Source of the DNA: Schmidtea polychroa
Taxonomy: Eukaryota
DNA length: 64,000 nucleotides
Assembly (NCBI GenBank): GCA_044892525.1
Contig: CM097885.1
Span: 21,020,001 to 21,084,000, forward strand
Direction of reading: 5' to 3'
Shown: positions 2,301-62,897 of the stretch, piece by piece
Layout: every line of letters starts with the position of its first letter
How positions within the stretch are numbered: position 1 is the stretch's first letter
Notes under the pieces: generated by a model
Database searches by the model: none
Seen by the model: only the letters and a program-made list of their open reading frames with translations
Told to the model about the DNA's origin: nothing
Position numbers and translations under genes: made by a program

Positions 2301-2304
2301 AACG

Positions 2305-4140: not shown

Positions 4141-4478
4141 CCACATGAAATTATTGGTTAAATATGAAAATAAGGGTTATATTTAGTTGTTAAGTAAATT
4201 ATGGTGTAAAATTAAGTAATAAAGCATAAATAGGTAAATTAAGGATAAGTAAATTAAAGTTAAAAAATTAAATTAAAGTTAATTAAGGTCCAAATTTTAA
4301 AAATAAGTAATCAATGTTCTAAAAAATTAAATTAAAGTTAAATAAGTAAATTAAAGTAATAATTTTTAAATAAGTAATGTAATATGAAAATTAAAGTAAG
4401 ATTTTTAAATTTATTATCAAAAGATTGAATAACCACCAACTTTTTTGAGAAATGTAATTTTTAATGAAAATTTAAATG

Positions 4479-4534
<56 letters not shown>

Positions 4535-5934: not shown

Positions 5935-6430
5935 ATAAAATCATCTAAAAAGAATCATTTTCCCCTAAATATATCAATATTTAAAGATTGGTATTTTAAT
6001 GATAAGTACTTGTTAAAGATCATATATTCACCTCAAACTAACAAGATTCCTTAAAATCCCCTTAAATGACTACATTTCTATCCTTAATTCATATTATTAC
6101 AAATATCATCTAAAAAGCATCAAATTTCATTGAAATAACACTATCTTTAAAGATTGATATTTTAATGATAAGTACCCTTAAAAGACTATATATTCACCTC
6201 AAACTAACAAGATTCCTTAAAATCTCTTAAATGACTATATTTCTACCCTTAATCCATATTATTACAAATATTTCACTAAAATCATCTAAAAAGCATCAAA
6301 TTTCCCTGAAATAACTATCTTTAAAGATTAGTATTTTATCGATAAATATCCTTAAAAGGTTATATATTTACCTCAGACTAATAAGATTGCTTAAAATCCC
6401 CTTTAAATGACTTTAATTCCTATTATCATG
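5935..6430 (+). repeat. ~170-bp tandem repeat x3 within the palindrome arm
   Basis: ATCATCTAAAAAG recurs at ~5940, ~6105 and ~6281; mirrored at ~8410-8895. Confidence 0.75.
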
Positions 6431-7539
6431 AATATTTCCCTATAAAACATGTAAAATAATTTGGTCATTAACCCTAGATAATTGATAAAATCTAATGATA
6501 AAACCGGTTATAATTAACTTTTTGTTAATCACTGTACTCGAAATTTAAAATAAATATAACTGACTAGGTCCCATTAAAAGATTAAATTTATCCATTCAAT
6601 AAAATATATTTCTTCAAATGATCATTTTACCGATATTCAACCGATTTAATTACTAATTAAAATCAATCGATAGATTTCTTTCAATAAAGATCAATTTTAT
6701 TTAGTCGATGTTTTAAGTCCATATTTCTAAACTTTTATCATTTTTGTAAATTTCTATTATTTTTGTGGATTTCTAACATTTTTGCAAATTTGATGTTTAT
6801 TGAATGAATATTTAATAATTTAATGCTAATTCTAAGATAAATTTAATTAATTTCTTGATAATTGGATGTATTTTTATTGACTTGTTTTTTTTAATTTTAA
6901 ATAAAAATTATTTTCAATGAGGTTAATAATTAGAGATTTTACAATAATGAAGTGATATGATAAATTTTTATGAGGATATTGAATAATTTTCTAAGAATTT
7001 CATGTTGACTGATAAATTTAATTGATAAATTTAATTAATTTCTTGATAATTAGTTGTATTTTATTGAATAGTTTCTAAATAAAAATTAATTTCATTGACA
7101 ATTAGGTTAATAATTAAGTGATTTTTGATGATAACTTTGTAATGTATTTGACTAAATAATTTTTTCAATAATTTACTCATTGATGAACTTTAAAAAACAT
7201 AAGCTAAGAAACCAGTTAACTTTAAATTTACATGAAAATGATTGTAGGATATACAGAAATTTAGTTTGCTTGAAAATGATTGGTTGAATCGATGAAGAAT
7301 TATGATCAAACAATATATATCATCTCCAGTATTTGATGGTAAATATTTGTAGAAAATATTGATTTTTGATCTTTTAGTGGGCTCTTATTATTTAGCTTCT
7401 AAATTATTTCAATGGAAGAATATTTGGTGTCTATAACAATTCATTTGTTTTTTTGAAGAATTCTTTAAGGATTTTAAGAGGATTGACTGAATTAAAGGAG
7501 GATTCAAGTGGGTAGAATTGAAGGATATATTTGGTTAGA

Positions 7540-7860
7540 TGTTTAAAGAGGTAGAAATATTTAATGAGAGATCGATTAAGATGGGAAAATATGATCTTTT
7601 AAGGGAGATATAGTCGGTTAGATTTAATGAAGGATGGGTTAAGATGGAAATAGATCATTGTAAGGGAGATATAGTCGATTGACTTTAATAAGAAATCGAT
7701 TAAGATGGGAATATATGATCTTTTGAGGGGATATAGTCGGTTAGATTTAATGAGAGATCAGATAAGGTGGGAATATATTATTGTAAGGGAGATATAGTCG
7801 GTTGCTTTTAATGAGGGAAGGGTTTCGATGGGAATATATGATTTTTTAAGGGTGATGTTG
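7540..7860 (+). repeat. ~60-bp purine-rich tandem repeat (TTTAATGAGAGATCG...GGGAATATATGATC...GATATAGTCGG)
   Basis: About 5 degenerate units; homologues at ~50950-51230 (-) and ~55030-55320 (+). Confidence 0.75.
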
Positions 7861-8090
7861 GTAAAATATCAATGTTTTTTAAGGAAATTGCAATACATTA
7901 GTCAGTTATGAATCAATAATAATTATATCGTTTTATTAGGTTGTGATTAATCCATTGTATATTAATTTAGATTTATGGATTATTAAGTAGGGATAATGAG
8001 CGATTTACTTGGTTTTGACAATGAAAACTTTACAGATAATTGGGATTGATATCAACTTTAAATTATTTTTATCTTTATTTAGACGGAGAA

Positions 8091-10296
8091 TGACAAAAGT
8101 TTAGAAATATGGACTTAAAACATCGATTAAATAAAATTGATCTTTATTGAAAGAAATCTATCGATTGATTTTAATTAGTAATTAAATCGGTTGAATATCG
8201 GTAAAATGATCATTTGAAGAAATATATTTTATTGAATGGATAAATTTAATCTTTTAATGGGACCTAGTCAGTTATATTTATTTTAAATTTCGAGTACAGT
8301 GATTAACAAAAAGTTAATTATAACCGGTTTTATCATTAGATTTTATCAATTATTTAGGGTTAATGACCAAATTATTTTACATGTTTTATAGGGAAATATT
8401 CATGATAATAGGAATTAAAGTCATTTAAAGGGGATTTTAAGCAATCTTATTAGTCTGAGGTAAATATATAACCTTTTAAGGATATTTATCGATAAAATAC
8501 TAATCTTTAAAGATAGTTATTTCAGGGAAATTTGATGCTTTTTAGATGATTTTAGTGAAATATTTGTAATAATATGGATTAAGGGTAGAAATATAGTCAT
8601 TTAAGAGATTTTAAGGAATCTTGTTAGTTTGAGGTGAATATATAGTCTTTTAAGGGTACTTATCATTAAAATATCAATCTTTAAAGATAGTGTTATTTCA
8701 ATGAAATTTGATGCTTTTTAGATGATATTTGTAATAATATGAATTAAGGATAGAAATGTAGTCATTTAAGGGGATTTTAAGGAATCTTGTTAGTTTGAGG
8801 TGAATATATGATCTTTAACAAGTACTTATCATTAAAATACCAATCTTTAAATATTGATATATTTAGGGGAAAATGATTCTTTTTAGATGATTTTATTGGA
8901 GAATTCACTTGGATATACCAATTATTGTCATTTAAATGAATTTACTGGTTTGTTAGATGTTATCATTAGTTATCTAGTCTCTTTTGGAATTTAATGATAA
9001 TTATTTTTATTGTAGATTGCTGACTTTGATAATTGTAATGAATTTATACTGATTTTTTTGAATATATTGAGAAATCAGTCAATCAATTTGAGTACATGTA
9101 TTACTTTTACAAAAATAATTAAATTTAATTTTATTTAAATTAATTTATTCAATCTAAATCAATTATCTACTAGATCTTATTTCAAAATTCTTATTAATTT
9201 ATTATCTTAGTTGATTCATATTAACTTGAATGATCAATGACTAGAATTTAAAGTTCTTTCTTGTCCATTAATTATATTTTTTTAATTTAGTATATTTTGA
9301 ATAATTTAAATTTTTACAATAATTTAATCAATTTTTACCAAGTTATTGATGCCTTGAGTTCAAATATCTTAAAAGTGCCTTGAGTTCAATTAATTTTTCA
9401 TCTAATTTTTTTCAAGTGATGAGTATTTGCTTTTAAAGATCAATTTGTTAGTACATAGTTGTTGGTTGTAAGTAGTTGGTTGACTTTTTAGATTTTGATA
9501 AGAAAATAGTGTATGCGATGAAGAATAATTTTTTTATTTAATTGCTATTATTTTTATGTGTTGTTAGTTGATTGTTGGTACTAAGTTGTTGGTTTCTTGT
9601 ATTTGGTAGTTGGTACAGTGTTGTATACTGATTGTTGTTATATAGTTGTAGGTTGATAATGCTTAGTACCTGGTTGTTGTTGGTTGTTAGTGTTTAGTAT
9701 TTAGTTGTTTGAAACCTAGTTGTTAGTACATGGTAACTAATTAATGAGTAGGTGGGGGGTTGAGTGTTACCAATACCCTTACGACCAGTACCCTTACGAC
9801 CAGTACCCTTAGGGGGTCAAAACATCCTGTCGGATAAACTCAGAGTATATATAATAAAACTGATCAACAATAAGTATTTATTGAATGCGATTTTTACATT
9901 GCAATAATAAGTTATCAATTAAAAGAAGAATGTTTTGTGAATTAGAATTCATTAGTCTTTCATTGTAATTATTTTGAATTTCACGTGGTGTTTTAAAGTG
10001 GTTGAGTTGTGGTTTTTTGATGAAAATCAACATTTTTTGTTAAATTTGAAAAGGTTTTTCTACTGATTGTAATTAAATATATTTTTGAAGATAGATAAAA
10101 AATTAATTTAAAAATCATTTCATAAAATACAATGAAGAATATTTAGTTGATTGTAAGTAGTTAGTTGTAAGTATGTGGTTGTTTGAGAGTTAGTTAGTAC
10201 GTGGTATCATGTTGAAAGTATTTGTTAGCACCTAGTTAAAAATAATCAGTAACCGATTGTTGGTAACTGTTTAATTATTATTATAATTATTATTAA

Positions 10297-10355
<59 letters not shown>

Positions 10356-13300
10356 CATTTAAATTTTCATTAAAAATTACATTTCTCAAAAAAGTTGGTG
10401 GTTATTCAATCTTTTGATAATAAATTTAAAAATCTTACTTTAATTTTCATATTACATTACTTATTTAAAAATTATTACTTTAATTTACTTATTTAACTTT
10501 AATTTAATTTTTTAGAACATTGATTACTTATTTTTAAAATTTGGACCTTAATTAACTTTAATTTAATTTTTTAACTTTAATTTACTTATCCTTAATTTAC
10601 CTATTTATGCTTTATTACTTAATTTTACACCATAATTTACTTAACAACTAAATATAACCCTTATTTTCATATTTAACCAATAATTTCATGTGGTCATCTG
10701 GTTGTAAGTGTTTGGTATCTAGTTGACAGTGCTTAGTACTAGGTAAGTTACTTGGTTGTTAGTACTTGGTTGATAATGCTTAGTACCTGGTTGATGTTGG
10801 TTGTATGTACTTTGTAGGTGGTTGTAGGTGCTTAGTAGTTGGTAACTGGTTGTTAGTACTTGGTAGGTGGTTGTTAGTTGGTTGTAGGTACTTAGTAGTT
10901 GGTTAATAATGCTTAGTACTTGGTTGTTGTCGCTTGTGAGTACTTGGTATCTAGTACCTAGTTGGTTGGTTGTTAGTACCAGTTGTAGGTAATTAATGCT
11001 TAGTACCTGGTTGTTGTCGGTTGTTAGTACATGGTAGATGGTAGCTAGTTGGTTGTAGGTACTTAGTAGTTGGTTAATAATGCTTAGTAACTGGTTGTTG
11101 TCGGTTGTGAGTACTTGGTATCTAGTACCTAGTTGGTTGGTGGTTTTTGGTTGATAGTACTTGGTATCTAGTTGTAAGTATTTGGTATCAGGTAACTGGT
11201 TGTTAGTATCTAGTTGTAGGTTGTAGGTACTTAGTAGTTGGTAATTAATGCTTAGTACCTGGTTGTTGTAGGTTGTGAGTACTTGGTATCTAGTACCTAG
11301 TCGGTTGGTTGTTAGTACTTAGTATTTAGTTGGTTGATAATGCTTAGTACCTGGTTGATGCTGGTTGTAAGTAGTTGGTATCTAGTACCTAGTTGGTTGG
11401 TTGTTAGTACCAGTTGTAGGTACTTGGTAGCAGGTAACTGGTTGTTAGTATCTAGTTGTAGGTTGTAGGTACTTAGTAGTTAGTTGATGATGCTTAGTAC
11501 TTGGTTGATGTTGGTTGTAAGTACTTGGTATCTAGTTGTTAGTAACTAGTTGTAGGTAATTAATGCTTAGTAGTTGGTAACTGGTTGTTAGTATTTAGTT
11601 GTTTGAGACCTGGTTGTTAGTACTTGGTAGCTAGTTAATGGGTTGGTGGTTGTAGGTACTTGGTATCTAGTTGTTAGTATCTAGTTGTAGGTATCTGGTA
11701 ACTAGTTGGTTGTTGGTACTTAGTAGGTGGTATCTGGTACCTGTTTGGTTGCTTGTTTTTGGTTGTTAGTACTTGTTAGGTGGTTGTAGGTACTTAGTAT
11801 CAGGTAACTAGTTGTTAGTACCTAGTTGTAGATACTTGGTATCTGGTAATTTGTTGTAGGTACTTGGTTGTTTTTGGTTGTTAGTACTTAGTAGTTGGTT
11901 GTAGGTACTTGGTAGGTGGTAGTTAGTTGTTAGCTAATTGTTGTGGGTTGTTAGTACTTGGTATCAGGTAACTGGTTGTTAGTAACTAGTTGTAGGTATC
12001 TGGTTGTAACTACATGTTCGTAAGTTACTGGTTGTTGGTACTAAGTTGTTGGTTTGTTGTTGAATTATTATTAAAATTTGTCTTTGAAAAATTATTTCAT
12101 AAAAATTTCCATTAAAAATTACCATTAAAAAATATTTCATAAAAATTTCAATTAAAAATTAACTTAAAAAATTATTTCATAAAAATTTTAATTAAAAAAT
12201 TTCAATTCTCAAACACCTATTATTTCAACTTTTTGTTAATAAATTTAAAAATCTTACTTTAATTTACTTATTACATTACTTATTTAAAAATTATTACTAT
12301 AATTTACTTATTTAAAATTTTTTACCATTGATTACTTAATTTAAAAATTTGGACCTTAATTAACTTTAATTTAATTTTTTAGAACCTTAATTTACTTTAA
12401 TTTAAAAATTTGGACCATTATTTACTGTAATTTAATTTTTAGAACCTTAATTTACTTTAATTGAAAAATTTGGACCATTATTTACTTTAATTGAAAAATT
12501 TGAACCATAATTTACTTATTTAGACCATAATTTACTTTAATTTAATTTTTTAGAACCATTATTTACTGTAATTGAAAAATTTGGACCATAATTACTTTAA
12601 TTTAATTTTTAGAACCTTAATTTACTTTAATTTAAAAATTTGGACCATTATTTACTTTAATTTAATTTTTAGAACCATAATTTACTGTAATTTAATTTTT
12701 TAGGACCATAATTTACTGTAATTGAAAAATTTGAGCCATTATTTACTTTAATTTAAAAATTTGGACCTTAATTAACTTTCATTTAATTTTTTTTAGACCA
12801 TTATTTACTTAAATTCAATTTTTAGAACCATTATTTAGTGTAATTGAAAAATTTGAGCCATAATTTACTTTAATTTAATTTTTTAGAACCATAATTTACT
12901 TTAATTTAATTTTTGGACCATTATTTACTGTAATTCAAAAATTTTGACCATAATTTACTGTAATTCAAAAATTTGAGCCATAATTTACTGTAATTTAATT
13001 TTTTAGAACCATTATTTACTTTAATTGAAAAATTTGAGCCATAATTTACTGTAATTTAATTTTTAGAACCATAATTTACTTAAATTTAAAAATTTGGACC
13101 ATTATTTACTTTAATTGAAAAATTTACCACGTTTTTAGTGTAGACCACCTATTTCTCAGGACCAAGGAGACTCACCTCACTATAGTCTGAAAAAATCCTT
13201 GGCTTTTTTAGTGGTAGTCAGATTTTTGTATTGAAAATATCCTGAGACCTTAAATTACCATGCTTTTTTAGTGTAGACCAGCTTTTTGTATTGAAAAATT

Positions 13301-13739
13301 TTTTTTGTATTGAAAATCCTAGGACCATCGAGACCCCCTCACTATAGTCGGAAAATTCCATGCTTTTTTAGTGGTAGTCGGATTTTTGTATTGAAAATCC
13401 CAGGACCATCGAGACCCCCTCACTATAGTCTGAAAATTCCATGCTTTTTTATTGGTAGTCGGATTTTTGTATAGAAAATCCCAGGACCATCGAGACCCCC
13501 TCACTATAGTCTGAAAATTCTATGCTTTTTTAGTGGTAGTCGGATTTTTGTATTGAAAAAAATTTTTTGTATTGAAAATCCCAGGACCATCGAGACCCCC
13601 TCACTATAGTGTGATAAAAAAAAATTTGGACCAAAAATCCCTGAAAGCAAAAAAATGAGTTGGGAACAATTGCGTAATAAAAAGTTGGGAACAACAGGGG
13701 GGGGGGGTAATTGTTCCCGCGGGCTACTATCTACCTACT
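8091..13739 (-). repeat. Right arm of the element A inverted repeat
   Basis: Reverse complement of 1599..6740. The spacer 6741-8090 is homologous to ~54260-55610 of element B. Confidence 0.9.
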
Positions 13740-16470: not shown

Positions 16471-16594
<124 letters not shown>

Positions 16595-16625
16595 CCATGA
16601 CAACTTTTTGTGTTTCAATATACAT

Positions 16626-17849
16626 TTATACCAACACTGTTCTATTTGCAGTAATTTGAACTTCATTTTCAAATACTCCATATATTATAACATGTACCGG
16701 TTCAGTAATAGCTTTTGCAAACTTTATATCCAGTCGTAAATTTCCATTTTGTGGTAATTGACTTTGATTTAAATCAAAATCAGGGGCTAAAACAAATGTA
16801 AAAAATGGATATTTGCTTTTAAAATCTTCTAGAGTAATTCCACAATTCAAATTTTTATCTAAATAACCCAGATTTCTAACAATACTCTGCATATATGTCG
16901 CACAGTAATTGTCATTCTCGAAATCTTGAATATATGTTTCTCTATAATCAGTATTTTTCGACAAAGTCAATGAAGTAACATTAAAGTTTTTGAAAATTGA
17001 GCTGGAAGCAGTATAAGATCCATTATATTGTGCTTCACTTTGAAATGTTATCAGAATAAAATTAGGCATTCTTCTGTCACCAAATATTTGTTCTTTATAG
17101 AATGATGAAGCACCTTTAGCAATAGCGAATTGTACAATTTCCTTTGTCTTTAATGGATAAATTGCATGTTTTGAATTAAGACCCAATTGATGACCAGCTA
17201 ATACTGAGGGGTCCACTCGAACTCTTCTCACCAATAATTTTGCATCGACTAATTGACATATTGGTGCACCAGTTGCACTAGTAAGAGATAATGCAGAATC
17301 GGACCTTTTCAATCTAATGTGTACATTAACTCCCGGTAGTAAATATTTCGGTTGATCCATAAAATCAAGTTGTAACGATGAGCACATGGCGAAAACCTTT
17401 GAACCTTTAACCCACTTTTTTCTTTCATCATCTGTTGCTGCATAACCCATAGGTGTAAGACAGGTATTTTTAGTATCGGAATTGTAATTTAAAATAGTTT
17501 CTATCAAAGCCTTGTGAATGAATGTATTATTTCCACCCTCAATCTTGATATTATTAAATCCCAACACTGCATCTTTAAACAGAGTATGAAACATGAAATT
17601 GTTCGGTATTACATCTGCATTGGCATCCAAAACTTTTCTATCTTTATCTACAACCTTGATCTTAACAGTCAATAAAGTATCGTTCAAATCTAAATATTCA
17701 GTTTGCGAACCATTAATATAAAACTCTATATCATTTCTACTATCGGTAATTGAATTCATAGGAAAAACTTCCTCAAATGCCCCAAATTCTATTACAGCCT
17801 GGGGCGATGGTCTATCAAATATACATAATTCAGATTTACCACAAATCAT
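16626..17849 (-). CDS. Polinton major capsid protein (double jelly-roll, PY)
   Basis: 407 aa. N-terminal CGKSELCIFDRPSPQ...IEFYINGSQTEYLDLNDTLL and C-terminal GNLRLDIKFAK...IIYGVFENEVQI match Maverick MCPs. Confidence 0.9.
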   Translation of the reverse strand: MICGKSELCIFDRPSPQAVIEFGAFEEVFPMNSITDSRNDIEFYINGSQTEYLDLNDTLLTVKIKVVDKDRKVLDANADVIPNNFMFHTLFKDAVLGFNNIKIEGGNNTFIHKALIETILNYNSDTKNTCLTPMGYAATDDERKKWVKGSKVFAMCSSLQLDFMDQPKYLLPGVNVHIRLKRSDSALSLTSATGAPICQLVDAKLLVRRVRVDPSVLAGHQLGLNSKHAIYPLKTKEIVQFAIAKGASSFYKEQIFGDRRMPNFILITFQSEAQYNGSYTASSSIFKNFNVTSLTLSKNTDYRETYIQDFENDNYCATYMQSIVRNLGYLDKNLNCGITLEDFKSKYPFFTFVLAPDFDLNQSQLPQNGNLRLDIKFAKAITEPVHVIIYGVFENEVQITANRTVLV

Positions 17850-18214
17850 TTTGCAAATATAGTTCCATGTCCTTTCATTCGTTTGTTTATACGTGATATT
17901 CCATGTCTTTTACGTTTTGGAACAGGAGCTGGAGCTGGAGATTTTTCTTTTTGAAACATACCTGCAACCCCGGGTAAAACTTTACCTAATTCAGCTAAAG
18001 CATTTGTTTTTAGAGATGGTAATATTTTCTGTTCATTCATAATAACATCTTTTGCAGTTTTCATACCAAAACTACCAATACGTTTAAGAATAGGCAATGC
18101 AAATCTACCAATTGTTCTCAACCATCCCGATCCGTACTGTTTACCAATAAAATATGGTAATTCGCCACCAGATTGGCTACCGCTATACATACTAATAATA
18201 TCAGAATTTGCCAT
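17846..18214 (-). CDS. Polinton small virion protein (PM-like)
   Basis: QSGG and QYGSG motifs, amphipathic WLRTIGRFALPILK, basic C-terminus; lies between mCP and MCP. Confidence 0.7.
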   Translation of the reverse strand: MANSDIISMYSGSQSGGELPYFIGKQYGSGWLRTIGRFALPILKRIGSFGMKTAKDVIMNEQKILPSLKTNALAELGKVLPGVAGMFQKEKSPAPAPVPKRKRHGISRINKRMKGHGTIFAK

Positions 18215-19134
18215 CTACTTTACGAAAATGTAATGTCAAATGAGTTTTTGAACCTTTTGGAAAGTTTATAAGTTTTCCACTATCATCACGAATATTTATT
18301 TCTATATTGTTTATACATGAACTTGCTATTGGTAAATACATGGGATTATCGATATTTATATTGACAACTTCATCATGTTCATATTTTCCAATCCATACCG
18401 ATTTCAAAAGAGGAACACTGGAATCACCAACAATTATGGGTTCGATAATGTTAGTATATATGAACATTTGTTGATGATGTTCTAGTATTCTTGGTTTGCG
18501 TATACCAGTCGATTTTTCTCGATATTTTTGCCTATCTAATCCAAGTGAATTTGCCAAATTTTTATCAAATGTAACTTCGCAAATATCCTCATTCAAACTG
18601 AAGGTAAACATCAAATCTTTCACAATTTCCAAATTTTTAAATATGTGTGAACAATTGAACTTTAAATATTTAAGTAAATCATCAAGTTTATCAAAATATA
18701 ATTCATCAGCAAAGGTAAATGATTCTTCAACTTCATCATTATACGACACAGATATTTTGATTTCTTCTTTCATTACACTGTTTGCTTCAAATAGATTAAA
18801 ACGTAATAAATACTCGGTCTCCGTAACAATATTTTTCAACTTATTGCAACCCATTCGTTTGGCATCTTCAATAATTACTAATAATAAAGATACCGCTACA
18901 TGTTTTCACAATATTCCTTTTGAAATCAATCTTACATTGACTATAAAATGGGAATGTGTTGTACACGAATGTAAAATCTTGCAGTGCAACTTCCCAGTCA
19001 CCATTTAAAGAAATCGGATTCTGGAGATTGACCATAAATTTACTGGCTTGATTGTCTGGATGAATTAATGGGCAACTATTGCTCGGTAAAATAGTATAAA
19101 AAATCACTTTACTAGGTCTTTTGCTGATATCCAT
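18201..19134 (-). CDS. Polinton minor capsid protein (penton-like, PX), split over two frames by a probable intron or frameshift
   Basis: N-terminal FYTILPSNS...PISLNGDWEVAL; C-terminal MFIYTNIIEPIIVGDSSVPLLK...NIEINIRDDSGKLINF...LTLHFRK. Confidence 0.85.
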
Positions 19135-19733
19135 GACGGGTTTTGATAACCATGCCATTTGACATAGTATTGTTTATCCTTACCTACCTTTTTAGTTTTC
19201 AATATTTTTTGAATTCTAAATACTTTTGGAGGAGGAATGACTTGTAATTCCTGCTCATAAAATTTCCCTTGTACAATATTATTATCACTGTCTTTGATGA
19301 CATACATTACAGGATTCTGTTTAGTATTTATTTTTGAAATTACAAAGACTTCATCACTCCAATTTGTATCGAAATTTTTAATAAATGGTGATGCACTAAT
19401 TTTACTAATTCTAACATGGTCACCGACTTTATATTTAGGTTTTGCAATTTTTACAGATTTCTTAGAATAGAATGTTTTTGATGTAATATCAACCGGTCTC
19501 AATCCATCCAGTCCTCGATGTGATGAATGATTATAACTTGTTATTATTTTCGGTAAAGCATTTACCCATTTTTTATTACCTTGATGCACGAACAATTTCT
19601 TTAATCGATCTCTCAATGTTCGATTAAATCTTTCAACGTGGGCAGCTTTGTATTGAGAATGTACCGAGTAGTGATTTATTTTCAGTTTATCGAGGATTTG
19701 CTTAACTTTACTATTGTAGAATTCTTTACCTAA

Positions 19734-19798
<65 letters not shown>

Positions 19799-20186
19799 CT
19801 AAATCTGTTTGCAAGTTATTAGGATGTCCATCTTTAAATAAAATATTAATTGCCTTGGACATTTCTTCTGCAGATTTTGCCTTGACCGGTATTGCTCGTG
19901 CAAACCTGCTGTATACATTAATACATGTTAAAATATATTTATTCCCATTGTTAATTTTCGAATAGGGTATCATCTCCATCAAATCCATTTGCCATAAATC
20001 GTCAATACCAAATGTTTTATACGCTCTTGTTGGAAATCTTTTCCGCATTGGTTTGTTCAAACTGTACGCAAGCTGATCTGATAACCACTTCTGGGTTTCT
20101 TTTTTCGAATTCGGAACTCTTTTGTTTAATTTTGCCACTCCACCGAAACCGGCTTCGTCTTCTGGGTTCATCCAAATCTTCTCCAT
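19104..20186 (-). CDS. Polinton retroviral-like DDE integrase with C-terminal chromodomain; one 69-nt intron (19730-19798)
   Basis: Motifs WQMDL, QTDLG^KEF and HVERFNRTL; chromodomain YYVKWHGY..PSWI. The poly-Ile run in the ORF track is an (ATT)n tract bounded by GT...TAG. Confidence 0.92.
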
Positions 20187-20244
20187 TACAGCAAGAAGAT
20201 TTAAAATTAAATTTTATGTCAGGCAATGAAGGATTAGCACCCAT
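20017..20244 (-). CDS. Small ORF overlapping the integrase start; possible N-myristoylated protein
   Basis: Starts 3 nt after the upstream stop; MGANPS fits the MGxxxS consensus; contains SSCC. Confidence 0.4.
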   Translation of the reverse strand: MGANPSLPDIKFNFKSSCCNGEDLDEPRRRSRFRWSGKIKQKSSEFEKRNPEVVIRSACVQFEQTNAEKISNKSV

Positions 20245-20247
20245 TGT

Positions 20248-20769
20248 TTATGACTGTGTAACTCCACCTAATAATGATAATGCCAGAGGTATCAATGCAC
20301 CAATAAATCCACCTTGTTGTTTATATATAATTTTCCTCATTTGCTTACGATTTTTATTATTTACTAAAGATAACAATGGTTTCCTATGTTTGCTCAATAA
20401 ATGCTTTTTTGATTTACTGATTTTAATTTTGCCTTTGACTACTTTAAGTATAATATTGAGTAAATCATCGACAACAAAATTTGGGAATGATTGCAATATA
20501 TTCATTCTTTTCATACTCGGGGCCTTTAACAATGCATTAAAAAATGGAAAACTGCGATGATTTTTAACTACTTTTTTACTGGTTTTACGGGTTTTACGGG
20601 TTTTACGTTTAGGTTTAGGATTTTTAGAAATAAGATTCATTGCCGAGAAATTTTCAGTTACAAGTTTTTTAGACGGTGTAGTTGTTGGTGGAACTTTTGG
20701 AACTTTAATAGTCTTTCTAATACCTTTTCTTAATTTCTTAATATTTTTCACCCTTGCTTTTAGAAACAT
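20248..20769 (-). CDS. Basic Polinton protein (PW-like)
   Basis: Lys/Arg-rich, ends QQGGFIGALIPLALSLLGG; lies between ATPase and integrase. Confidence 0.7.
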   Translation of the reverse strand: MFLKARVKNIKKLRKGIRKTIKVPKVPPTTTPSKKLVTENFSAMNLISKNPKPKRKTRKTRKTSKKVVKNHRSFPFFNALLKAPSMKRMNILQSFPNFVVDDLLNIILKVVKGKIKISKSKKHLLSKHRKPLLSLVNNKNRKQMRKIIYKQQGGFIGALIPLALSLLGGVTQS

Positions 20770-20787
20770 TATTATTCATAGAGGTTT

Positions 20788-21414
20788 TCAACTTTGTTTA
20801 TAAACCATGGCACCTTTTGGGTTGAAAATATCTGTTTTTACTCGTAAATCATCGGGACATTGTTGTGTGAAATCAAGAAATATATATCCATGAGGTATTT
20901 TTGTAGCATCTTGAAATGCACTGATAAGAAAATTACGATTGTTAGGGTATGCTTGGCGTGCAAGAAAATAAATCACTGTTGCATCTCTAGGATTCTTGAA
21001 AATAACTAAATATTGTACATTTAAATTACGTGTTCGATGTGCCCCACCTTGATGAAATAGATTTTGTGTTATGAAAATAACTGTTACACCGACATGTCTG
21101 CTAATCTTTGTAAATAAATTATTAAAATCTTTTTCTTTATTAGCTTCTTGATACAAATCATCGATAATAATGACATCACCTTTCTTTAATCGGCTGGACC
21201 AGTTTTTATCGAATCCCTTTACTATTTTCATGTTTTTTAATTTACAGAAACTTGATTGAGTTAATCCATGTTCTTCTTCAGCACCCCTATGCCAATAAAT
21301 CCTGTTGAATTTTGATTTGAATAAATATGATTTTAGTAATTTACAAACAAATAATGTTTTTCCACTACCACTCGGACCAACGATTTGGTATACTGCATCA
21401 TTTCTTAATTCCAT
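20788..21414 (-). CDS. A32-like (FtsK/HerA) DNA-packaging ATPase
   Basis: Walker A GPSGSGKT, Walker B IIIDD, plus SRH..VTVIFITQN and FKNPRD. Confidence 0.93.
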   Translation of the reverse strand: MELRNDAVYQIVGPSGSGKTLFVCKLLKSYLFKSKFNRIYWHRGAEEEHGLTQSSFCKLKNMKIVKGFDKNWSSRLKKGDVIIIDDLYQEANKEKDFNNLFTKISRHVGVTVIFITQNLFHQGGAHRTRNLNVQYLVIFKNPRDATVIYFLARQAYPNNRNFLISAFQDATKIPHGYIFLDFTQQCPDDLRVKTDIFNPKGAMVYKQS

Positions 21415-21513
21415 TTCAAAAATTTTATAAATGTGTATTTGTTTATATTCGATGATTTAATGAACTCGTACTCAATTTGTATATAAAGACTAATTTTCAT
21501 AAATGATTTAATA

Positions 21514-21951
21514 ATGTTAGCAAATATAAATTATCGAGGAAATTTTGATGTAACAAATATGAGGTTCCCACCAGGAAAACCCCAGCAAATTATCGATAGA
21601 AGCGGGAAATACCCGATAATATTTTTCAAGACTGGTAAATGTAGAATCATGGGATGTAAGAAACCCTTGGATTTTAATAAATTACAATATCGAATAAATA
21701 ATATTAAAATCCAATCAATTACCGTTACTATGGATATGGGACATAGTATCAATTTATATAACATGTCGAAAAAATGTGATTGTATGTTTGAACCGGAATT
21801 TTTTCCCGCACTAAGACTAATAAAATATAACCCTTTATGTGTCAACGTGTTTGCTAGTGGAAAGGTTGTCATGCTGGGGTTGAGAAATTTGGAGTATAGA
21901 GAATTTGTTGACAATGTTCGAAATGAGATAATTTCATTGGTCAATTTCTAA
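21514..21951 (+). CDS. Divergent TATA-binding-protein-like protein
   Basis: Two TBP-repeat-like halves: IIFFKTGKCRIMGCK and FEPEFFPALRL...VNVFASGKVVMLG (compare TBP YEPELFPGL...LIFVSGKVVLTG). TATATAAAG about 25 nt upstream. Confidence 0.8.
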   Translation: MLANINYRGNFDVTNMRFPPGKPQQIIDRSGKYPIIFFKTGKCRIMGCKKPLDFNKLQYRINNIKIQSITVTMDMGHSINLYNMSKKCDCMFEPEFFPALRLIKYNPLCVNVFASGKVVMLGLRNLEYREFVDNVRNEIISLVNF

Positions 21952-22025
21952 TTGGTTAATTTCTAATTGGTTAATGATTGTTTTAAACAATATGTTTTCT
22001 GTTTAGAAATCATTTATTCAACAAA

Positions 22026-22461
22026 ATGTACAACATACAAAGTTCCGCAATCACCTCAATGAAAGAGCATGCAAATTATGGTAATTTCAAATGTTTATTA
22101 TTACATTAATATATATTTTACAGATGAATATCAATCAATTATCCTGCAAAGATTATGCTTCTATTATCCAGAATTAAATGAAATTCTACAAGATAGAGAT
22201 CCAGCTATCATTCCGGATTTGGTATACAACCAAACACGAATCTGGATATTCGATATAATAAACACCTTTCTATGGGATGTCAAGATAGGAAGGGTGATGA
22301 AAGAAATGAAACCAGAGGCTCCTTGCATTTTCGGATGTAGCTGCTGCAATTTCCGTTATCATCAATATGTTGAATGGTTTTTGGTGAAGACTCTGAGAAA
22401 TCACCACTCGTCATATTGTATCAAAATAAATTTTTATGTTGAATTGTTTTTGTTAATATAA
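22026..22461 (+). CDS. Two-exon hypothetical Polinton protein (~130 aa)
   Basis: Exon 22026-22080, 43-nt GT-AG intron, exon 22124-22461 in frame (MYNIQSS...HANYDEYQSIILQRL...); Cys cluster CIFGCSCC. Confidence 0.55.
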
Positions 22462-22707
22462 ATAATAGAAATAGAAATAATAGTAATAGAAATAGTAATA
22501 ATATAAGTAATAATAGTAATATTAGAAATAATAATAAAAAAAAACAATATTTATAATAAAAACATTAATGCAACATTAATGCAAATGACATACAATTTAA
22601 TCAAAGACATGCAATTTAAACAAAGACATGCAGCAATCTGATTGGTTGATAAACAATAGTCATAGGTATAAAAACCCTGTACCATTTCATTTTAATCATA
22701 ATTCACG

Positions 22708-23127
22708 ATGACAAAGAAAATTTCAAGCACTGAAAAGCCGAAAGTTGTTCCAGAACTTGTACAACCCGTTCAAATGTTCCACAACTATAAAATGTATTTT
22801 TTAAAAGAAGAAATCAATATGAAATTTGTGTCACCGATCAAGCTAATTCCTACCCAATTTCAATTTTTATCCGGCACGCTTTCAACGATAGATGTTAAAT
22901 CTATTGATGAGGTTTTCAAACGGTTGAATACGAATCTATCTTGTAATCAACATGCATTTTTCAACAACCGATATGCAAGATTTTATGATTCCTTTGATGA
23001 AATCAGCTTCAAAGAAAACGAAAATTGGTATATAACAATTGCAATCCAAGGATATAAAGTTGATAATAATGATGTGTATTCTCCAATTTGGAAAATTATG
23101 TCTGCTAGACTTTCACAACTATTTTAA
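22708..23127 (+). CDS. Hypothetical Polinton protein (139 aa)
   Basis: Clean ORF preceded by CTGATTGGTT and TATAAAAA, followed by AATAAA. Confidence 0.6.
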   Translation: MTKKISSTEKPKVVPELVQPVQMFHNYKMYFLKEEINMKFVSPIKLIPTQFQFLSGTLSTIDVKSIDEVFKRLNTNLSCNQHAFFNNRYARFYDSFDEISFKENENWYITIAIQGYKVDNNDVYSPIWKIMSARLSQLF

Positions 23128-23260
23128 TGTTATATTGAATAAATGTATTAGTCATATTTGTTTTTTCTCTTTATTAATTGCAACATTAATGCAAATGACA
23201 TGCAAATTTAACAAAGAAAATCTATAAACAAACTTATAATATAGTTTTAAAGTGTTAATA

Positions 23261-23475
23261 ATGTCTGCAGAAAAAGGTTAACATGATTAATTAATTTCCA
23301 AATTATTTATTATTTAGAATTTGTAATCAACTTTTTGTTGGCAAAATTAGCTGAAATATCTGGGGTAAAAATTGAGGATATATTATCTGTTACAAATGCA
23401 TTAAATATGGGCTGGGTAGTTGAGAGTCAAGATACAGGATTTGATGATGAGGAAGAAACTCAAGAAATTGATTGA
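23261..23475 (+). CDS. Two-exon small acidic protein (~57 aa)
   Basis: Exon 23261-23276, 41-nt GT-AG intron, exon 23318-23475: MSAEKEFVINFLLAKLAE...DTGFDDEEETQEID*. Confidence 0.45.
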
Positions 23476-23640
23476 CGAAATCTATGAACCTATAGAGGAA
23501 CCTAAAGATAATATTACGAATGATTGTATTGATCATGTCGTTGAAAATATAATGAAATGTGGAGATGATGATTGCGAATGTGTTAATAAATTTTAAAATT
23601 GAATTATTTTAATTTAAATATACTATTAAAAACAATAACA

Positions 23641-24169
23641 TTAATTTTTATTCATATATCTACAGAAAATATACATTATAACAACTCCAGTTGTAAGTTT
23701 TATATAGTTTTTCATTTTTCTTTTGATTTCATCAATTTCTTTAAAATTGCAGGCCAGTTTATTCAATACACCCCATCCGCCATTGGCTTCTATCCATGGG
23801 GTAAACTTGGACTTGATTATCTAGAAATGAATATTATTAAAATATATATGTAGATTATAAAAGAAATCTTACTTCTAAAGACCACTGATAATAATGTTCT
23901 GAGTCATGTTGACCTTTTGCAATGATTATCTTCATGTAGGTGAATCCTACAATTATCCTTGTCCATTTCATGTCTTCATCGAAAAGACACTGAAATATTC
24001 TATTGAAGTAATACTTCTTGGTTTCCAGGGATTCTATCTCCATCATTTGCTGATAATCGATATGTTCACCTTCAATGATTTGTTCAGTTCGATTGATCAG
24101 GAAATTGAGGCTGTCGACTATATTCGCGGTGACAATTCCGTTTAGAACATTTTCACTAAATTGAGACAT
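23641..24169 (-). CDS. Two-exon Bcl-2-family-like protein (~158 aa)
   Basis: Exon 24169-23873, 52-nt GTAAG...TAG intron, exon 23820-23641. BH1-like LFDEDMKWTRIIVGFTY, BH2 WIEANGGW, C-terminal hydrophobic tail LTTGVVIMYIFC. Confidence 0.8.
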
Positions 24170-24362
24170 TTTTATAATAATTTTTAATATACTGCTTTAT
24201 TTATATTACTACTGAAATAACATATGTTCTGATTGGTTGATAGACTATAAAAATAGGAGTTTTGATTTGATACACCATTAAAACTAAATTCATATTGGTA
24301 TAATGAGTGTGTGCTAAAACTAATAATAATAATAATAATAATACCATTGCGAGTTGTTGAGC

Positions 24363-24433
24363 GTGAGCAGTACCCTTGTGAGCATTACCCATAGGGGGAC
24401 AAAATATTTTGTCGGATAAACTCGGAGTATATA
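24363..24433 (+). promoter_or_regulatory. Conserved cis motif shared between the Polinton and the palindromic elements (function unknown)
   Basis: ...TACCCATAGGGGGACAAAATATTTTGTCGGATAAACTCGGAGTATATA differs from 52367-52438 by 4 substitutions and 1 indel. Confidence 0.6.
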
Positions 24434-24699
24434 GATTAATACTAATACTAATAATAATAATAATTATATGACCTTGAAAATGGTCTCGGGAAAACGATAA
24501 TAACTTTGTCAATATTAATGATGATGATACCTTCAATAGCTCATTCGAAAGGTCTTGCACTAAGCTTTAAAATGAGCTATCGAACGATGAAATAAAATGA
24601 TTGAAACGACAACTTTTGGGCAAACGAAAACCAGGAGCCCGCTAGATCACTAATAATATTTTGAATAATAATAATAAAATAATAATATTTTTTTAAATA

Positions 24700-24931
24700 A
24701 TAATATGACCTTGATGAGTCATCACGATGAGTCATATGACCTTGAGAATGGTATTGATGAGTCATGGTCTTTGTTTAAATGACCTTGATGAGTCATATGT
24801 CTTTGTTTAAAATTTGACCTTGAAAAAAAATGTACTTTTAGACTTAGAAAATTTTTTTAAAATTTTCCGGCCAAGGGAGGGGGTATGTGATCTAGCGGGC
24901 TCCTGATCTAGCGGGCTCCAATCCATCTACT
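24700..24931 (-). repeat. Probable Polinton right terminal/TIR region
   Basis: Short repeats (TGACCTTGATGAGTCA; TGATCTAGCGGGCTCC x2) ending in CTACT. Predicted TSD CATGGT (24932-24937); the partner end is not in the window. Confidence 0.65.
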
Positions 24932-26295: not shown

Positions 26296-26529
26296 TATGA
26301 GGAAGTTTTATGATGAAGAAATTTTTAAATTGAAAATTTTAAAAATTAAATTTTAGATTAATTTTTAAAAAACAAAATAAGAAGATATTTTAATTAAAAA
26401 TATCTTCGTAGAAAATTTGTTTAAATAAGAAATTTCAAAGAAGATATAATTTGATTTTGATATTTACTGAAATAAAATTTATGGAAACAAAAACTGATTT
26501 TAATGTTTTACAGGATGAACCTCTTAATA
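26296..26529 (+). repeat. 5' LTR
   Basis: 4 differences from the 3' LTR over 234 bp. Confidence 0.95.
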
Positions 26530-27573
26530 TGGTGGCAGCGGTAAACACGGACGCAATCACCGAAAGATTGCTACCAAAGGTATTCTGCCAAGGAGACGAT
26601 TTGGAAAAGTTCATTAAAAGATGCGAAATTTATTTCGACGCCAAGGGAATCACGCAGAAGAAAGATCAGGAAAGATTAACATCTTGCATGATTGATGAGG
26701 ATCTCCTGGAAGTGTACGCCAAAACACTGAAAAAAGCCGAAGGATTCCAGGCTAGATTGCGATTGGCATTCGATCGCGAAAGAGATGTTTTAAAGGATCT
26801 ACAAAACTTGTTGAATTACAAGCGGAAGGGTGAAGAAATAGAAACGTATTTTAAAAAGGTGGAGGACCTTGTTGATAGATTGTTTGAAAATAAAGAATTT
26901 ACCAAAGAGAAATTAACAGCAAGGATGTTAATAGTATGCGGAGAATAAAGAAGTTGAGAAAGAAGTGATACTACGGAAGATAAAAAGCACAGAAGAAATA
27001 AAGGAAACACTAACTCTGATGGACAAAGTATACAAGCAAAGAGATCAGATAAACAGTATGAAAAGTTACGCCAGAGTGGTCTATCAGGAACCACAGGGAA
27101 GAGTACAATACAAGAAGAAAGAACAGAGAGAAGAAAGTATCCGAAGAGAAATGCCAGAATGCTGGTTATGCCACAAAATAGGACACATGAAAATTGATTG
27201 TCCAATAAAAGGTAAAATAGAATGCTGGACATGCCATAGAAGCGGACATATAAGTAGAAACTGTCCAGATAAAAAAGCTCCAAGATGTTTTGGGTGTGGG
27301 AAAGAAGGTCATATAAGAAGATTGTGTCAGGAAATACGTTGTGAAAGATGTAGCAGAAATGGTCATAGATCCGAGGAGTGTTATACAAAGATGAGGTACG
27401 GGAGGGCGACGGAGAGACAAAGATTCACGGGAAACAGATACAGTCGGATAAATGGTATCGAGGAAGAAGAAGAAAGGGAATCGTGTGTAGAGACAAATGA
27501 AGATAATTTTAGGAAGACGTACCCAAACAACAGGGCTCCACCAGTAGAGGAGTTGGTTGGAGCCATATTCTAA
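26529..27573 (+). pseudogene. gag: gag, frameshifted near 26945; four CCHC zinc knuckles
   Basis: Two ORFs in different frames; knuckles CWLCHKIGHMKIDC, CWTCHRSGHISRNC, CFGCGKEGHIRRLC, CERCSRNGHRSEEC. Confidence 0.85.
26530..26542 (+). promoter_or_regulatory. Primer-binding site, tRNA-Leu type
   Basis: TGGTGGCAGCGGT immediately after the LTR, complementary to the tRNA-Leu 3' end ACCGCUGCCACCA. Confidence 0.8.
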
Positions 27574-27581
27574 CAGAAAAT

Positions 27582-30500
27582 TTGATGGGATATCCTCAAG
27601 GAGCAGAAAAGTGGGAGAATGTTGGAAGGGTAAGCGAGAAAGTATACAGGTTCCTAAAGAGAGAAATGTTTGAAGAGGAAGTGGAAAGAATTGGAACCAT
27701 TGAAACGGAGCAGGTTGTTGAAATTTTGTATAACAGAATGCAAGGAAGGCCTAGTATAACAGTAAGGATGAATGGGAAAATTTCGACTGTTTTTTAGACA
27801 CTGGGGCAAGAATCAATGTAATGAGTGTGAACTGCTTTAACAAGCTACGAGGACAACAATTGACGAAAAGTGACGATAAGTTACGATGCGCAAACGAGAG
27901 TACGATCGAGACAATAGGAAAAACGAAGGTGCAAGTAACCATTGGAAATGTTTCGAAGGAAGATATATTCATTGTGGCGGAGAAAGTGACACCAGACGTG
28001 ATTGGAGGAATCGAATTTCAAGAAACATTTGGATTTAGACTGTTAAAAATTAAAGATATCGAGGCTAGTGAAAAAGACAAGAACTATATTTGTAACATTG
28101 AAGCAAAATTTGGCAGAAAAATAAAGGATGAAGAACGATTGATACGAGCGTTGGAACAGTTAAAGATAAATGAAGATAGCAAATTAAAGGAAATTATAAC
28201 AAACAGTGGAAACGTGTTTATGGCAGATAAATGGGATGTGGGTCGCACACATTTGGTAAAACACAAGATAGTTACAAGAGGTGAGCCGATAAACATAAAA
28301 CCATATCGCCAACCACTAAATTTGGAATCAAAGATTGAAGAAGCAATACAAAATTTGTACGAAAATGGAATTATACGGAAATGTAACTCTCCATGGAATA
28401 CACCGCTAATATGTGTATGGAAAAAAGAGAAAAAGGATATTAGACTATGCTTGGACTTTAGACAGCTGAACGCGGTAATAGAGAGGCAGGCATTTCCAAT
28501 GCCAAACATAGACGAGATGTTGGATTTGTTAGGAGGATCCGTCTTTTTCAGCTCAATCGATCTAGGTAATGCATATTACCAAGTGGAACTAGAAGAAGAA
28601 TCATAGGAGAAAACAGTTTTCTCAACAAAGAACGGACAATATTGTTTTAACAGAATGCCGTTTGGAATTACAGCAGCACCAGGTAAGTTCCAAGAAATGA
28701 TGACAAAAGTATTAGGCAAAATAAAGGGAGCAGTGGTGTATTTGGATGACATCTTGATTTATTCAAGCAGTAAAGAGAAACACTATACAATACTCGGAGA
28801 AGTGTTAAAGGCGATTGAGGAAGCAGGCCTAAGGATTAATCCAGACAAATGCCAAATAATAAAGGAAGAAATCAGATTCTTAGGACACATAATCAGCAAG
28901 GAAGGAGTACAGACAGATCCATCTAAAATTCAGGCCATACAGAACTTTGGGAAGCCTAATTGCGTAAAGAAACTCCGAAGCTTTTTAGGTATTTGCAATT
29001 ATTATAGAAGATTCATCAGTGATTATGCAAAGAAGGCAAGGATGTTAGAACAATTATGTAGCGGACCAAGTAACAAAAAATTAGAATATAGTGAAGGAAC
29101 GAATAGCGGGTTTGAGGGATTGAAATTAGCACTCACGACGGCGCCAATCTTATGTTTTCCGGATCTGAAAAAGGAGTTCATTTTAGATACCGACGCTAGT
29201 TTCGATACCATTAGAGCAGTACTTTCACAAAGAGATAAAGATGGAAAGGAAAGAGTAATTGCGTATGGATCACACTCGATGACGAGCAACGAGAAAAGAT
29301 ATTGTATTACAAGAAAGGAACTATTGGCGGTATATTATCTTTGCATTCATTTTAAGCACTATCTCTACGGAAGAAGATTCACGCTCAGGACAGACCACAA
29401 GGCAATCACGTTTATGATGACAACCAAGAAGCCGATTACTTCACAATTCCAAACATGGATCAATTATTTGAGCAGTTTAGATATAAGAGTAGAATACAGA
29501 AAGGGTATTAATCACCAAAATGCAGACATGGTGTCGAGAACTAAATGTGACACGTGTGTTCAATGTCAAATGGCCCACGAAGAAGCTAAGAAAGGAAAGA
29601 TAAAAACCAGATTACTATACTCGATCAGAGAACAAGGAAGAAGCAACATCCAACATGGAATTGTAGAAGAAGTACGAAAGAAAACGATGATACCTGAAAA
29701 TGAGTTACAAGAAACAATAAAGGAAATACATAGACTATTGTGTCATGCTGGAGTCGAGAAGATAGCCGATTATATGAAAGATAGATATGTTGGAAAACAC
29801 CTGTGGAGTCAGATTCAGGAAATTGTTGGAATTTGTGAGATTTGTCAAAAAACCAAGGCTTTAACAATAACAACGAAAGAACCAGTAAAAAAACAAGATT
29901 CGAAGGAAATGTTCGAAATTATATTCGTGGATATATGTGGACCGTTGACAGAAACAAAAGGACGAAAGAAGTATATATTGGGCATAATAGATCAGTATAG
30001 TAAGTATCAAGTCTTGACAGTGATAACAAAACAAGACGAAGAAACAATAAAGAAAACGATTTTAGAAAAGTGGATTTTAAGATTTGGATGCCCAAAGGAG
30101 ATAAGAGTTGATTGCGGAAAGGCGTTTGAATCAGGAATGATGAGAGAATTCACAAAGATGCTAGATATTAAATTATGTTTTTCGAGTCCATACCATCACC
30201 AAACAAACGGTCAGATAGAAAGACAATTCAGGACAATACGGGATTTTATAAATGCTACTTTACAGGATAGAAAGAAGACGGATTGGGCAGAGATATTACC
30301 AGAAGTCGAATTCACTTTAAATGCAACCAAACAAAAAACGACAGGGAAAAGCCCGGCAGAGATAGTTTTTGGAAAAAAGATTAGCAGGGAAAAATGGTAC
30401 GGGTCCAAAGAAATACCGATAAAGGAAGAACTAGAAGAACAAACAAGGAGAAAATTCAATGTAGAAGAAGAAGTATTAGTAAAAGTAGAAACACGCCACA

Positions 30501-30640
30501 AAGGCCAGGACAGGTATGAAGGTCCGTACAAAGTGATAGAGAAAGTGCATGACAGACGATACATCTTAAGAAATGAAGATGGAAAAAGGATCGAAAGAAA
30601 TGTGGAAAAACTTAAAAATTTCTTAAGAAGGAGGATATGA
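27582..30640 (+). pseudogene. pol: pol (protease, RT, RNase H, integrase) with a frameshift near 27790 and an in-frame TAG at 28604-28606
   Basis: Motifs LDTGA, LCLDFRQLN, MPFG, YLDD, DTDAS, TDH, HHCC, VDICGP, VDCG, NGQIER, YEGPY. Confidence 0.92.
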
Positions 30641-30869
30641 GGAAGTTTTATGATGAAGAAATTTTTAAATTGAAAATTTAAAAAATTAAATTTTAGATTA
30701 ATATTTAAAAAACAAAATAAGAAGATATTTTAATTAAAAATATCTTCGTAGAAAATTTGTTTAAATAAGAAAGTTCAAAGAAGATATAATTTGATTTTGA
30801 TATTTACTGAAATAAAATTTATGGAAACAAAAACTGATTTTAATGTTTTACAGGATGAACCTCCTAATA
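30636..30869 (+). repeat. 3' LTR
   Basis: Direct repeat of 26296-26529. Confidence 0.95.
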
Positions 30870-30940
30870 TCCAGTTTGATCATATGCAGAATCAATACAA
30901 TCAATCATGAATATCGTTTTCAAGCTGATCAGTGTGGAGC

Positions 30941-42985: not shown

Positions 42986-43166
<181 letters not shown>

Positions 43167-43218
43167 TAAAACAATAAAATGATAATTTAAGCCTTTTGCT
43201 GCAAATAATGTATTTAAT

Positions 43219-43257
43219 GAAAGAATTTTCGACTATACGATAGTCCTTGTCAATCTC
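43219..43257 (-). ncRNA. Candidate minimal variant hammerhead ribozyme in the Penelope 3' repeat
   Basis: GAGA-UUGACAA-G-GACUAU(CGU)AUAGUC-GAA-AAUU-C-UUUC; folded by eye. Confidence 0.45.
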
Positions 43258-48651: not shown

Positions 48652-48687
<36 letters not shown>

Positions 48688-57600: not shown

Positions 57601-57617
57601 CTGTTGAATTATTATTA

Positions 57618-57680
<63 letters not shown>

Positions 57681-62868: not shown

Positions 62869-62897
62869 AATGCTGCTACCAAGCAATCATCATTTTA

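Follow-up and report, generated by a model that had tools for sequence, protein, structure and literature searches.

Why would a Polinton carry its own gene for a TATA-binding protein (TBP), and what would that protein do? The question is raised by a 64,000-nt stretch of the Schmidtea polychroa genome (the window; positions 21,020,001 to 21,084,000 of contig CM097885.1, assembly GCA_044892525.1). An earlier note, made from the letters alone, had read a compact 145-aa open reading frame in it as a Polinton-encoded TBP-like protein, either an element-specific transcription factor or a TBP decoy. The frame is present as described, and we refer to its product as mini-TBP.

The mini-TBP gene lies in a truncated Polinton copy (Table 1), head-to-head with the packaging ATPase gene, whose ATG (position 21414, minus strand) is 99 nt away; the gene is thus divergent from the ATPase-integrase-capsid block, as had been claimed. 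Behind the ATPase follow the basic ORF, the integrase, the putative penton, the 122-aa ORF and the capsid. The names penton, pX and core protein are putative labels that lean on gene position, and the 122-aa ORF is what we take to be a pX-like protein. Pfam gave no match for the small MGANP ORF, and family searches gave none for the putative penton or the 122-aa ORF. Homologues of the basic 173-aa ORF occur in 10 of 55 metagenome loci. Protease and polymerase genes are absent from the window's copy.

Table 1. The Polinton copy, its genes and its putative promoter elements, in window coordinates.
Feature	Position	Strand	Evidence or remark
Truncated Polinton copy	16591..24931 (about)	.	Right-hand ~8.3 kb; right end is the family's terminal sequence
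Double jelly-roll major capsid protein	16626..17849	-	Foldseek E=2e-15 to iridovirus MCP; also PBCV-1, mavirus
122-aa ORF, pX-like virion protein	17846..18214	-	Putative label
ATAAAC box	17885..17890	-	41 nt before major capsid ATG
Putative minor capsid protein (penton)	18201..19158	-	Label by position; two frames in this copy
Two ATAAAC boxes	18264..18314	-	55 and 100 nt before 122-aa ORF
Retroviral-like integrase with chromodomain	19104..20186	-	rve E=1e-5, Chromo E=3e-4, both below curated cut-offs
ATAAAC box in integrase tail	19172..19177	-	46 nt before second Met of putative penton
Small ORF starting MGANP	20017..20244	-	Start conserved in relatives
ATAAAC box	20246..20251	-	65 nt before integrase ATG; 7 nt before small ORF ATG
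Basic 173-aa ORF, putative virion core protein	20248..20769	-	Labelled from charge and position
ATAAAC box	20319..20324	-	80 nt before small MG-start ORF
A32-like packaging ATPase	20788..21414	-	Pox_A32 E=2e-6, above cut-off
ATAAAC box in ATPase tail	20796..20801	-	32 nt before basic ORF
ATAAAC box, intergenic	21441..21446	-	32 nt before ATPase ATG
Canonical TATA (TATATAAAG)	21480..21488	+	34 nt before TBP ATG; presumed early-type promoter
Mini-TBP gene	21514..21951	+	145-aa ORF; Pfam, PDB, AlphaFold2, Foldseek
CCAAT (ATTGG) and canonical TATA before ORF139	22640..22676	+	Presumed early-type promoter
ORF139	22708..23127	+	Homologue beside TBP gene in 17/55 metagenome loci
Bcl-2-like ORF	23855..24169	-	Bcl-2 E=0.002, below cut-off; CCAAT and canonical TATA upstream

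Ten sister copies were inspected over 20 kb, six of them extended. All six long copies, which span about 19-21.5 kb, are flanked by 6-bp target duplications and end in inverted repeats that start with AGTAG. An adenain protease is encoded in sister copies, and polymerase frames of 1277-1357 aa were found in all three copies listed; these match a PHROG DNA polymerase (E=3e-21) and have exonuclease and KxxxNSxYG motifs, with no Pfam PolB match. By its inverted repeats, target duplications, integrase, ATPase, protease, polymerase and capsid the element is a Polinton/adintovirus, so that this assignment of the earlier note stands. It has no RNA polymerase gene, and three host TFIIB/Brf exon queries found no TFIIB-like gene in the six long copies, ten other stretches of the same genome or the 55 metagenome loci.

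Some further features of the element were noted. ORF139 is the commonest neighbour of the TBP gene among the metagenome loci and gave no usable family or Atlas match; it is a candidate partner of mini-TBP. The small MGANP ORF overlaps the integrase start, has a conserved CC motif and is kept in distant relatives; it starts with Met-Gly and is possibly a lipid-modified virion protein. Within the integrase (19720-19800), an in-frame AAT microsatellite produces poly-Ile runs, as it does in other copies. Sister copies have a RING-finger ORF near the left end (L051:6457-7002); Bcl2 and IAP homologues of adintoviruses are mentioned in PMC8502044. Elsewhere in the window, an LTR retrotransposon lies just right of the Polinton end (26296-30870), with 235-bp direct repeats that are 98% identical, a zinc-knuckle gag and RT/RNase H/integrase frames broken by stops and frame changes. 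The window also has two large regions of nested inverted repeats (1817-13617 and about 43159-62869), with arms of up to 2263 nt that are 100% complementary; the latter region contains GIY-YIG and RT pieces.

That the 145-aa frame encodes a protein with the TBP fold, a shrunken TATA-binding protein, was confirmed by sequence and structure searches. The match to the Pfam TBP family (PF00352; E=1.9e-14) scores 53.7 bits, well above the curated cut-off of 22.9, and spans residues 63-125, the C-terminal half-repeat. A sequence search of the PDB gave 35 matches at E<=1, all of them TBP or TBP fusions. The AlphaFold2 model, computed from a 77-sequence alignment, has a mean pLDDT of 96.2 and forms a two-lobed saddle, and every chain among the Foldseek PDB matches listed at E<=0.001 contains TBP. 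Both lobes align over about 170 columns with TM(query) values of 0.67-0.77 and 20-25% identity. The earlier reading of two TBP-like half-repeats holds at the sequence level for the C-terminal one; the N-terminal half-repeat is degenerate and is recognised by its fold only. Before residue 81 the model has no helix of four or more residues, so both N-lobe helices are absent, and the distance from the phenylalanine to the stirrup is 55 residues, as against 69-73 in full-length sequences.

The surface that faces DNA is conserved and altered. Yeast TBP positions were placed on the alignment of 77 family members by motif positions that we presume to be correct. Three of the four DNA-kinking phenylalanines are kept in the family, F38, F97 and F113 each in 77/77 sequences (equivalent to F116, F190 and F207), and the first intercalating phenylalanine, equivalent to F99, is proline in 76 of 77. 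Equivalents of N69 (N4, 74/77) and P191 (69/77) are also kept. Nine non-canonical DNA-face residues are fixed: N6 (74 of 77), P23 (76), R44 (76), M46 (77), S68 (74), T70 (75), R101 (76), C109 (77) and N111 (77). They include the replacements V71 to N, F99 to P, V122 to R, T124 to M, N159 to S, V161 to T and L205 to N, each fixed in 74-77 of the 77 sequences. Of the two acidic stirrup residues at TFIIB-contact positions, E95 is invariant (77/77) and position 93 is E in 73 and D in 4 sequences. It is the 3' half of a TATA box that the N-lobe of TBP reads, and in this half the element's box, described below, differs.

The residue numbers for yeast TBP were taken from Table 1 of PMC12529657; the steps of phenylalanine insertion are described in PMC1935006 in a passage that does not assign them to a lobe. 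TFIIB contacts two acidic residues of TBP, and TFIIA, TAF1, Mot1 and Brf contact an N-lobe basic patch (PMC7221094). Viral TBPs are generally diverged at both sites (PMC7221094); of the two, the mini-TBP family has lost only the basic patch.

The gene is widespread and under selection. In this AT-rich 781-Mb genome we found at least 150 matches at 96-100% identity (the best 150 of 4166 candidates were scored), and all 150 are stop-free, in a sample that is biased because it holds top matches only. Five further subfamilies in the same genome carry diverged versions, against which mini-TBP has dN/dS of 0.11-0.21 (dN 0.26-0.34, dS 1.3-2.9); against six metagenome genes dS is saturated. Purifying selection thus acts on mini-TBP, as judged from these sequence comparisons. 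In a protein collection, 103 of 105 candidates were mini-TBP homologues, mostly of 140-165 aa, and a profile search gave 61 clusters at E<=1e-30. A Polinton hallmark gene is present in 24 of the 55 metagenome loci; another 10 have an ORF139 homologue only, and 21 (on contigs of 1-3 kb) have neither. The gene order varies. When loci were picked by a family-type ATPase instead of by TBP, six of seven had the head-to-head TBP gene, and in the seventh the sequence ends just upstream of the ATPase. The presence of the gene in related Polintons, which had been proposed as a check, is therefore borne out by sister copies and metagenome elements alike.

In a 54-row tree, 21 TBP rows with Polinton context separate with 100/99 support from 10 cellular rows, which include six host loci (three of them partial), so that the gene is distinct from the host paralogues. 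The 24 short TBP forms make up a clade (100/99) nested among longer unplaced relatives; because the root is a midpoint root, we claim no donor. The stop-free copies among the 150 scored, the dN/dS values and the tree rule out a chance ORF or a decayed host retrocopy. In a distant element (L105:1-1199; its ATPase is 36% identical), the TBP is longer and more of the N-lobe is preserved, yet ATAAAC stands before the ATPase here too, which suggests that the ATAAAC box predates the shortened TBP form. At least six loci of the TBP family are present in the host genome. The host's TFIIB core is interrupted by an intron, and the genome also holds 13 clustered TFIIB-repeat matches with open frames of 301-310 aa (C3 38.2-39.1 Mb, C1 23.8-24.2 Mb).

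The virion-module genes share a short upstream motif. Its consensus with flanks is (T)ATAAAC(A)(A), with T in 27 of 31 and the next A in 29 of 31 cases, giving the box form TATAAACA, which matches a TATA box everywhere except at position 7. In one long copy, ATAAAC occurs within 100 nt upstream of six of the seven virion-block genes and of none of the five right-arm genes (permutation P=1.1e-4, with 16% of random windows containing ATAAAC; because lineages are related, P values overstate independence); the gene for the protease has none upstream in the long copy tested. The virion block of one long copy holds 10 sense and 1 antisense occurrences. Counted over metagenome loci and the subfamilies of this genome, the box is found upstream of 23/25 ATPase genes (18/19 non-redundant), 14/14 capsid genes (9/9) and 13/14 pX-like genes (8/9), as against 4/57 TBP genes (4/42).

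Several of these boxes lie within the end of the preceding gene, where the codon pattern shows constraint on the DNA itself. Ile-Asn is encoded as ATA AAC in 34 of 59 cases in gene tails, as against 14 of 115 in gene bodies. The box is found in two reading frames as well as in intergenic DNA, and in the integrase tail the box keeps its bases although the encoded residue may be D, H, Y or N. Protein constraint alone as the cause of the box's conservation is ruled out by codon choice, the two frames and the intergenic cases.

Two promoter classes can be distinguished in these elements. The start of the box lies at a median of 36 nt from the ATG (n=30, range 32-84), and the canonical TATA box of TBP and accessory genes at a median of 41 nt (n=26, selected within 25-60 nt). 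An initiator-like TCA follows 22-34 nt downstream in 23 of 26 canonical cases and in only 1 of 30 cases after ATAAAC, and CCAAT was found upstream of 12/42 TBP genes and 1/19 ATPase genes. A canonical TATA box at 25-55 nt was present in only 21 of 42 TBP upstream regions. From the TATA, initiator and CCAAT counts, the non-structural genes look host-type and the virion-module genes have a bare variant box; a variant TATA box specific to structural genes is what is found in these elements.

For comparison, we used another Polinton family that is present in high copy number in this genome. Its copies (five inspected) are about 15 kb long and very young, with 98-99% identity between them, and its integrase is fused to a phospholipase A2-like domain. 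Two profiles detected no TBP in it at E<=10, with a spike-in recovered at 1.5e-56. In one copy, none of ten genes has an ATAAAC box upstream, and the family shows no obvious shared promoter motif. The box is thus not a general Polinton or host feature, and co-evolution with the TBP gene is not shown by this comparison, since the family is a single distant lineage (its capsid is 21% identical to that of the mini-TBP element). Scans of IMG/VR with TBP, ATPase and capsid alignments returned no relative and hence no external TBP-less control, and no TBP-less Polinton family of the same clade was found in the own genome. Since the control is one distant lineage and the clade itself yielded no TBP-less member, common ancestry may be all that links box and gene.

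Taken with the fold and the promoter data, mini-TBP is probably the element's late-gene switch, which would bind TATAAACA before the virion-module genes and steer host Pol II to them. Host TFIID would transcribe the TBP and accessory genes from ordinary TATA-plus-initiator promoters. Mini-TBP would then bend the variant box with its three remaining phenylalanines and, by way of the two acidic residues kept in the stirrup, recruit TFIIB and Pol II of the host without TAFs; recruitment of host TFIIB is proposed because no TFIIB gene was found in the elements. Without the N-lobe helices it may escape control by TAF1, Mot1 and TFIIA, which fits the missing initiator in the virion-module promoters. 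Bound at TATAAACA, it would switch on the packaging, capsid and integrase genes, and it is expected to prefer TATAAACA over TATAAAAG, the difference being the C at position 7. Some observations sit less easily with this switch: one of the four phenylalanines is lost, whereas KSHV ORF24 needs all four, one box is only 7 nt from an ATG, the protease gene lacks the box, and half of the TBP upstream regions have no canonical TATA at the expected place.

Other readings of the box and the protein have to be weighed against the late-gene switch. Host TBP, a host TBP paralogue or a forkhead protein might read ATAAAC, with the element's TBP doing something else: ATAAACA fits the forkhead consensus, there are at least six host TBP-family loci to consider, and the TBP-less control is one lineage. 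Cellular TBP has also been crystallised on a C(-25) TATA variant (title of PDB entry 1qn3; Patikoglou et al., 1999, cited via PMC4402545). We nevertheless regard reading by a host factor as unlikely, given that the box is fixed in strand and position, that the alternative forkhead form GTAAAC is rare upstream of the ATPase (4/25, as against 23/25 for ATAAAC), that other genes of the same elements use canonical TATA and initiator, and that the TBP-less family in the same host has no box. The box might instead be an initiator at which transcription starts, with mini-TBP binding elsewhere or more loosely. In some late promoters of large DNA viruses, transcription does start inside an initiator of this kind; a start 25-30 nt downstream of a box that is 32-37 nt from the ATG would leave very short leaders, and the box 7 nt before an ATG points the same way. 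The floor of 32 nt in the distances, their overlap with canonical TATA distances in the same elements, the departure from the TATA box at position 7 only and the lack of an RNA polymerase gene in the element make an initiator distinctly improbable.

The decoy proposed in the earlier note would act as a sponge, soaking up host TFIIB or occupying host TATA boxes, and so dampen host transcription. Retention of the acidic stirrup residues in 77/77 sequences and loss of one DNA-kinking phenylalanine would suit it, but a pure sponge has no need of nine fixed non-canonical DNA-face positions, the N-lobe helices that bind Mot1, TAF1 and TFIIA (PMC7221094) are absent, and the gene-class-specific box is left unexplained. 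Because the surfaces that a decoy for Mot1, TAF1 or TFIIA would need are gone, the other half of the proposal, an element-specific transcription factor, is favoured by the conserved DNA face, the lost regulator surfaces and the box, and we consider a decoy improbable. Very improbable, in our view, is a mini-TBP that represses virion genes in integrated copies from the box or serves replication or packaging. Co-activator surfaces are lost, as a repressor would allow, and the ATPase box sits between the two divergent genes; TFIIB-contact residues are retained, however, and known viral TBPs with variant boxes are activators.

Such activators provide the closest precedent for a late-gene switch. 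In beta- and gammaherpesviruses, viral TBPs that go with a variant late box are established, and KSHV ORF24, with the late box TATTWAA, depends on its phenylalanines (PMC12529657). Mini-TBP resembles ORF24 in combining a virus-encoded TBP fold with a minimal variant TATA box before structural genes and, as we infer here, reliance on host Pol II. Both have a polar, rewired DNA face, with changes at the positions of V122, T124, V161 and L205. With 752 aa, ORF24 is far longer than mini-TBP with its 145 aa; it has all four phenylalanines where mini-TBP has three, is without the acidic TFIIB-contact residues that mini-TBP retains, and acts within a complex of six proteins. The box that goes with mini-TBP, TATAAACA, is also a different one. 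More generally, the ORF24/BcRF1/UL87 proteins are large and multidomain, with a Pol II-binding N-terminal domain, and mini-TBP is the TBP fold only.

The named viral Foldseek matches in BFVD are mostly TBPs or uncharacterised proteins of large DNA viruses, and viral TBPs of such viruses are treated in PMC7221094, in agreement with the statement of the earlier note that TBP homologues occur in large nucleocytoviruses. Like mini-TBP, the Nucleocytoviricota TBPs are divergent and lack the eukaryotic N-lobe signature (Ravarani et al., 2020, PMC7221094). Their matches at E<=0.001 are longer (186-547 aa), and they have diverged at the TFIIB-contact positions, often alongside a TFIIB of their own (PMC7221094), whereas the mini-TBP family keeps these positions. 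Cellular TBP and TRF share with mini-TBP the two-lobed saddle and the equivalents of N69, F116, F190, P191, F207 and the stirrup glutamate; compared with cellular TBP, mini-TBP is about 35 residues shorter, lacks the N-lobe helices, has Pro at the F99 equivalent and is 20-25% identical.

For Polinton relatives, the only precedent that our searches found is a gene labelled TBP in the legend to a figure of MELD viruses that have an adintovirus-like PolB (Starrett et al., 2021, PMC8502044, and preprint). Like mini-TBP, it is a TBP-like gene in a Polinton-related virus. The label stands in a section on non-animal datasets, and the text gives with it no family description, residues, promoter or mechanism. 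The earlier note, which places TBP outside the core Polinton gene set, had omitted this legend. The word polinton is absent from PMC7221094, a word search of PMC11161782 and two 2026 preprints found no TBP, and a literature search whose scope largely left out subscription journals found no description of the mini-TBP family or of its box.

If mini-TBP is the late-gene switch, these elements would have a herpesvirus-like late-gene programme, a separate and far simpler counterpart of the herpesvirus late-promoter system. We see about an even chance that a widespread animal Polinton lineage runs such a two-stage transcription programme with one orthogonal TBP of 145 aa that reads TATAAACA and plugs into host TFIIB and Pol II. 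The protein would then be a naturally occurring TBP of altered specificity, from which one could learn how the saddle reads TATA-box position 7, and it might serve as an orthogonal transcription factor. With a factor of its own and a short box restricted to the virion module, the element opens to experiment the long-standing question whether animal Polintons cycle as viruses. Transcripts that belong to the particle stage can be predicted from the box, and the protein, being small and having a site of 7-8 bp, lends itself to in vitro assays. The late-gene switch would argue, on genetic grounds, that these 'transposons' pass through a regulated virion stage.
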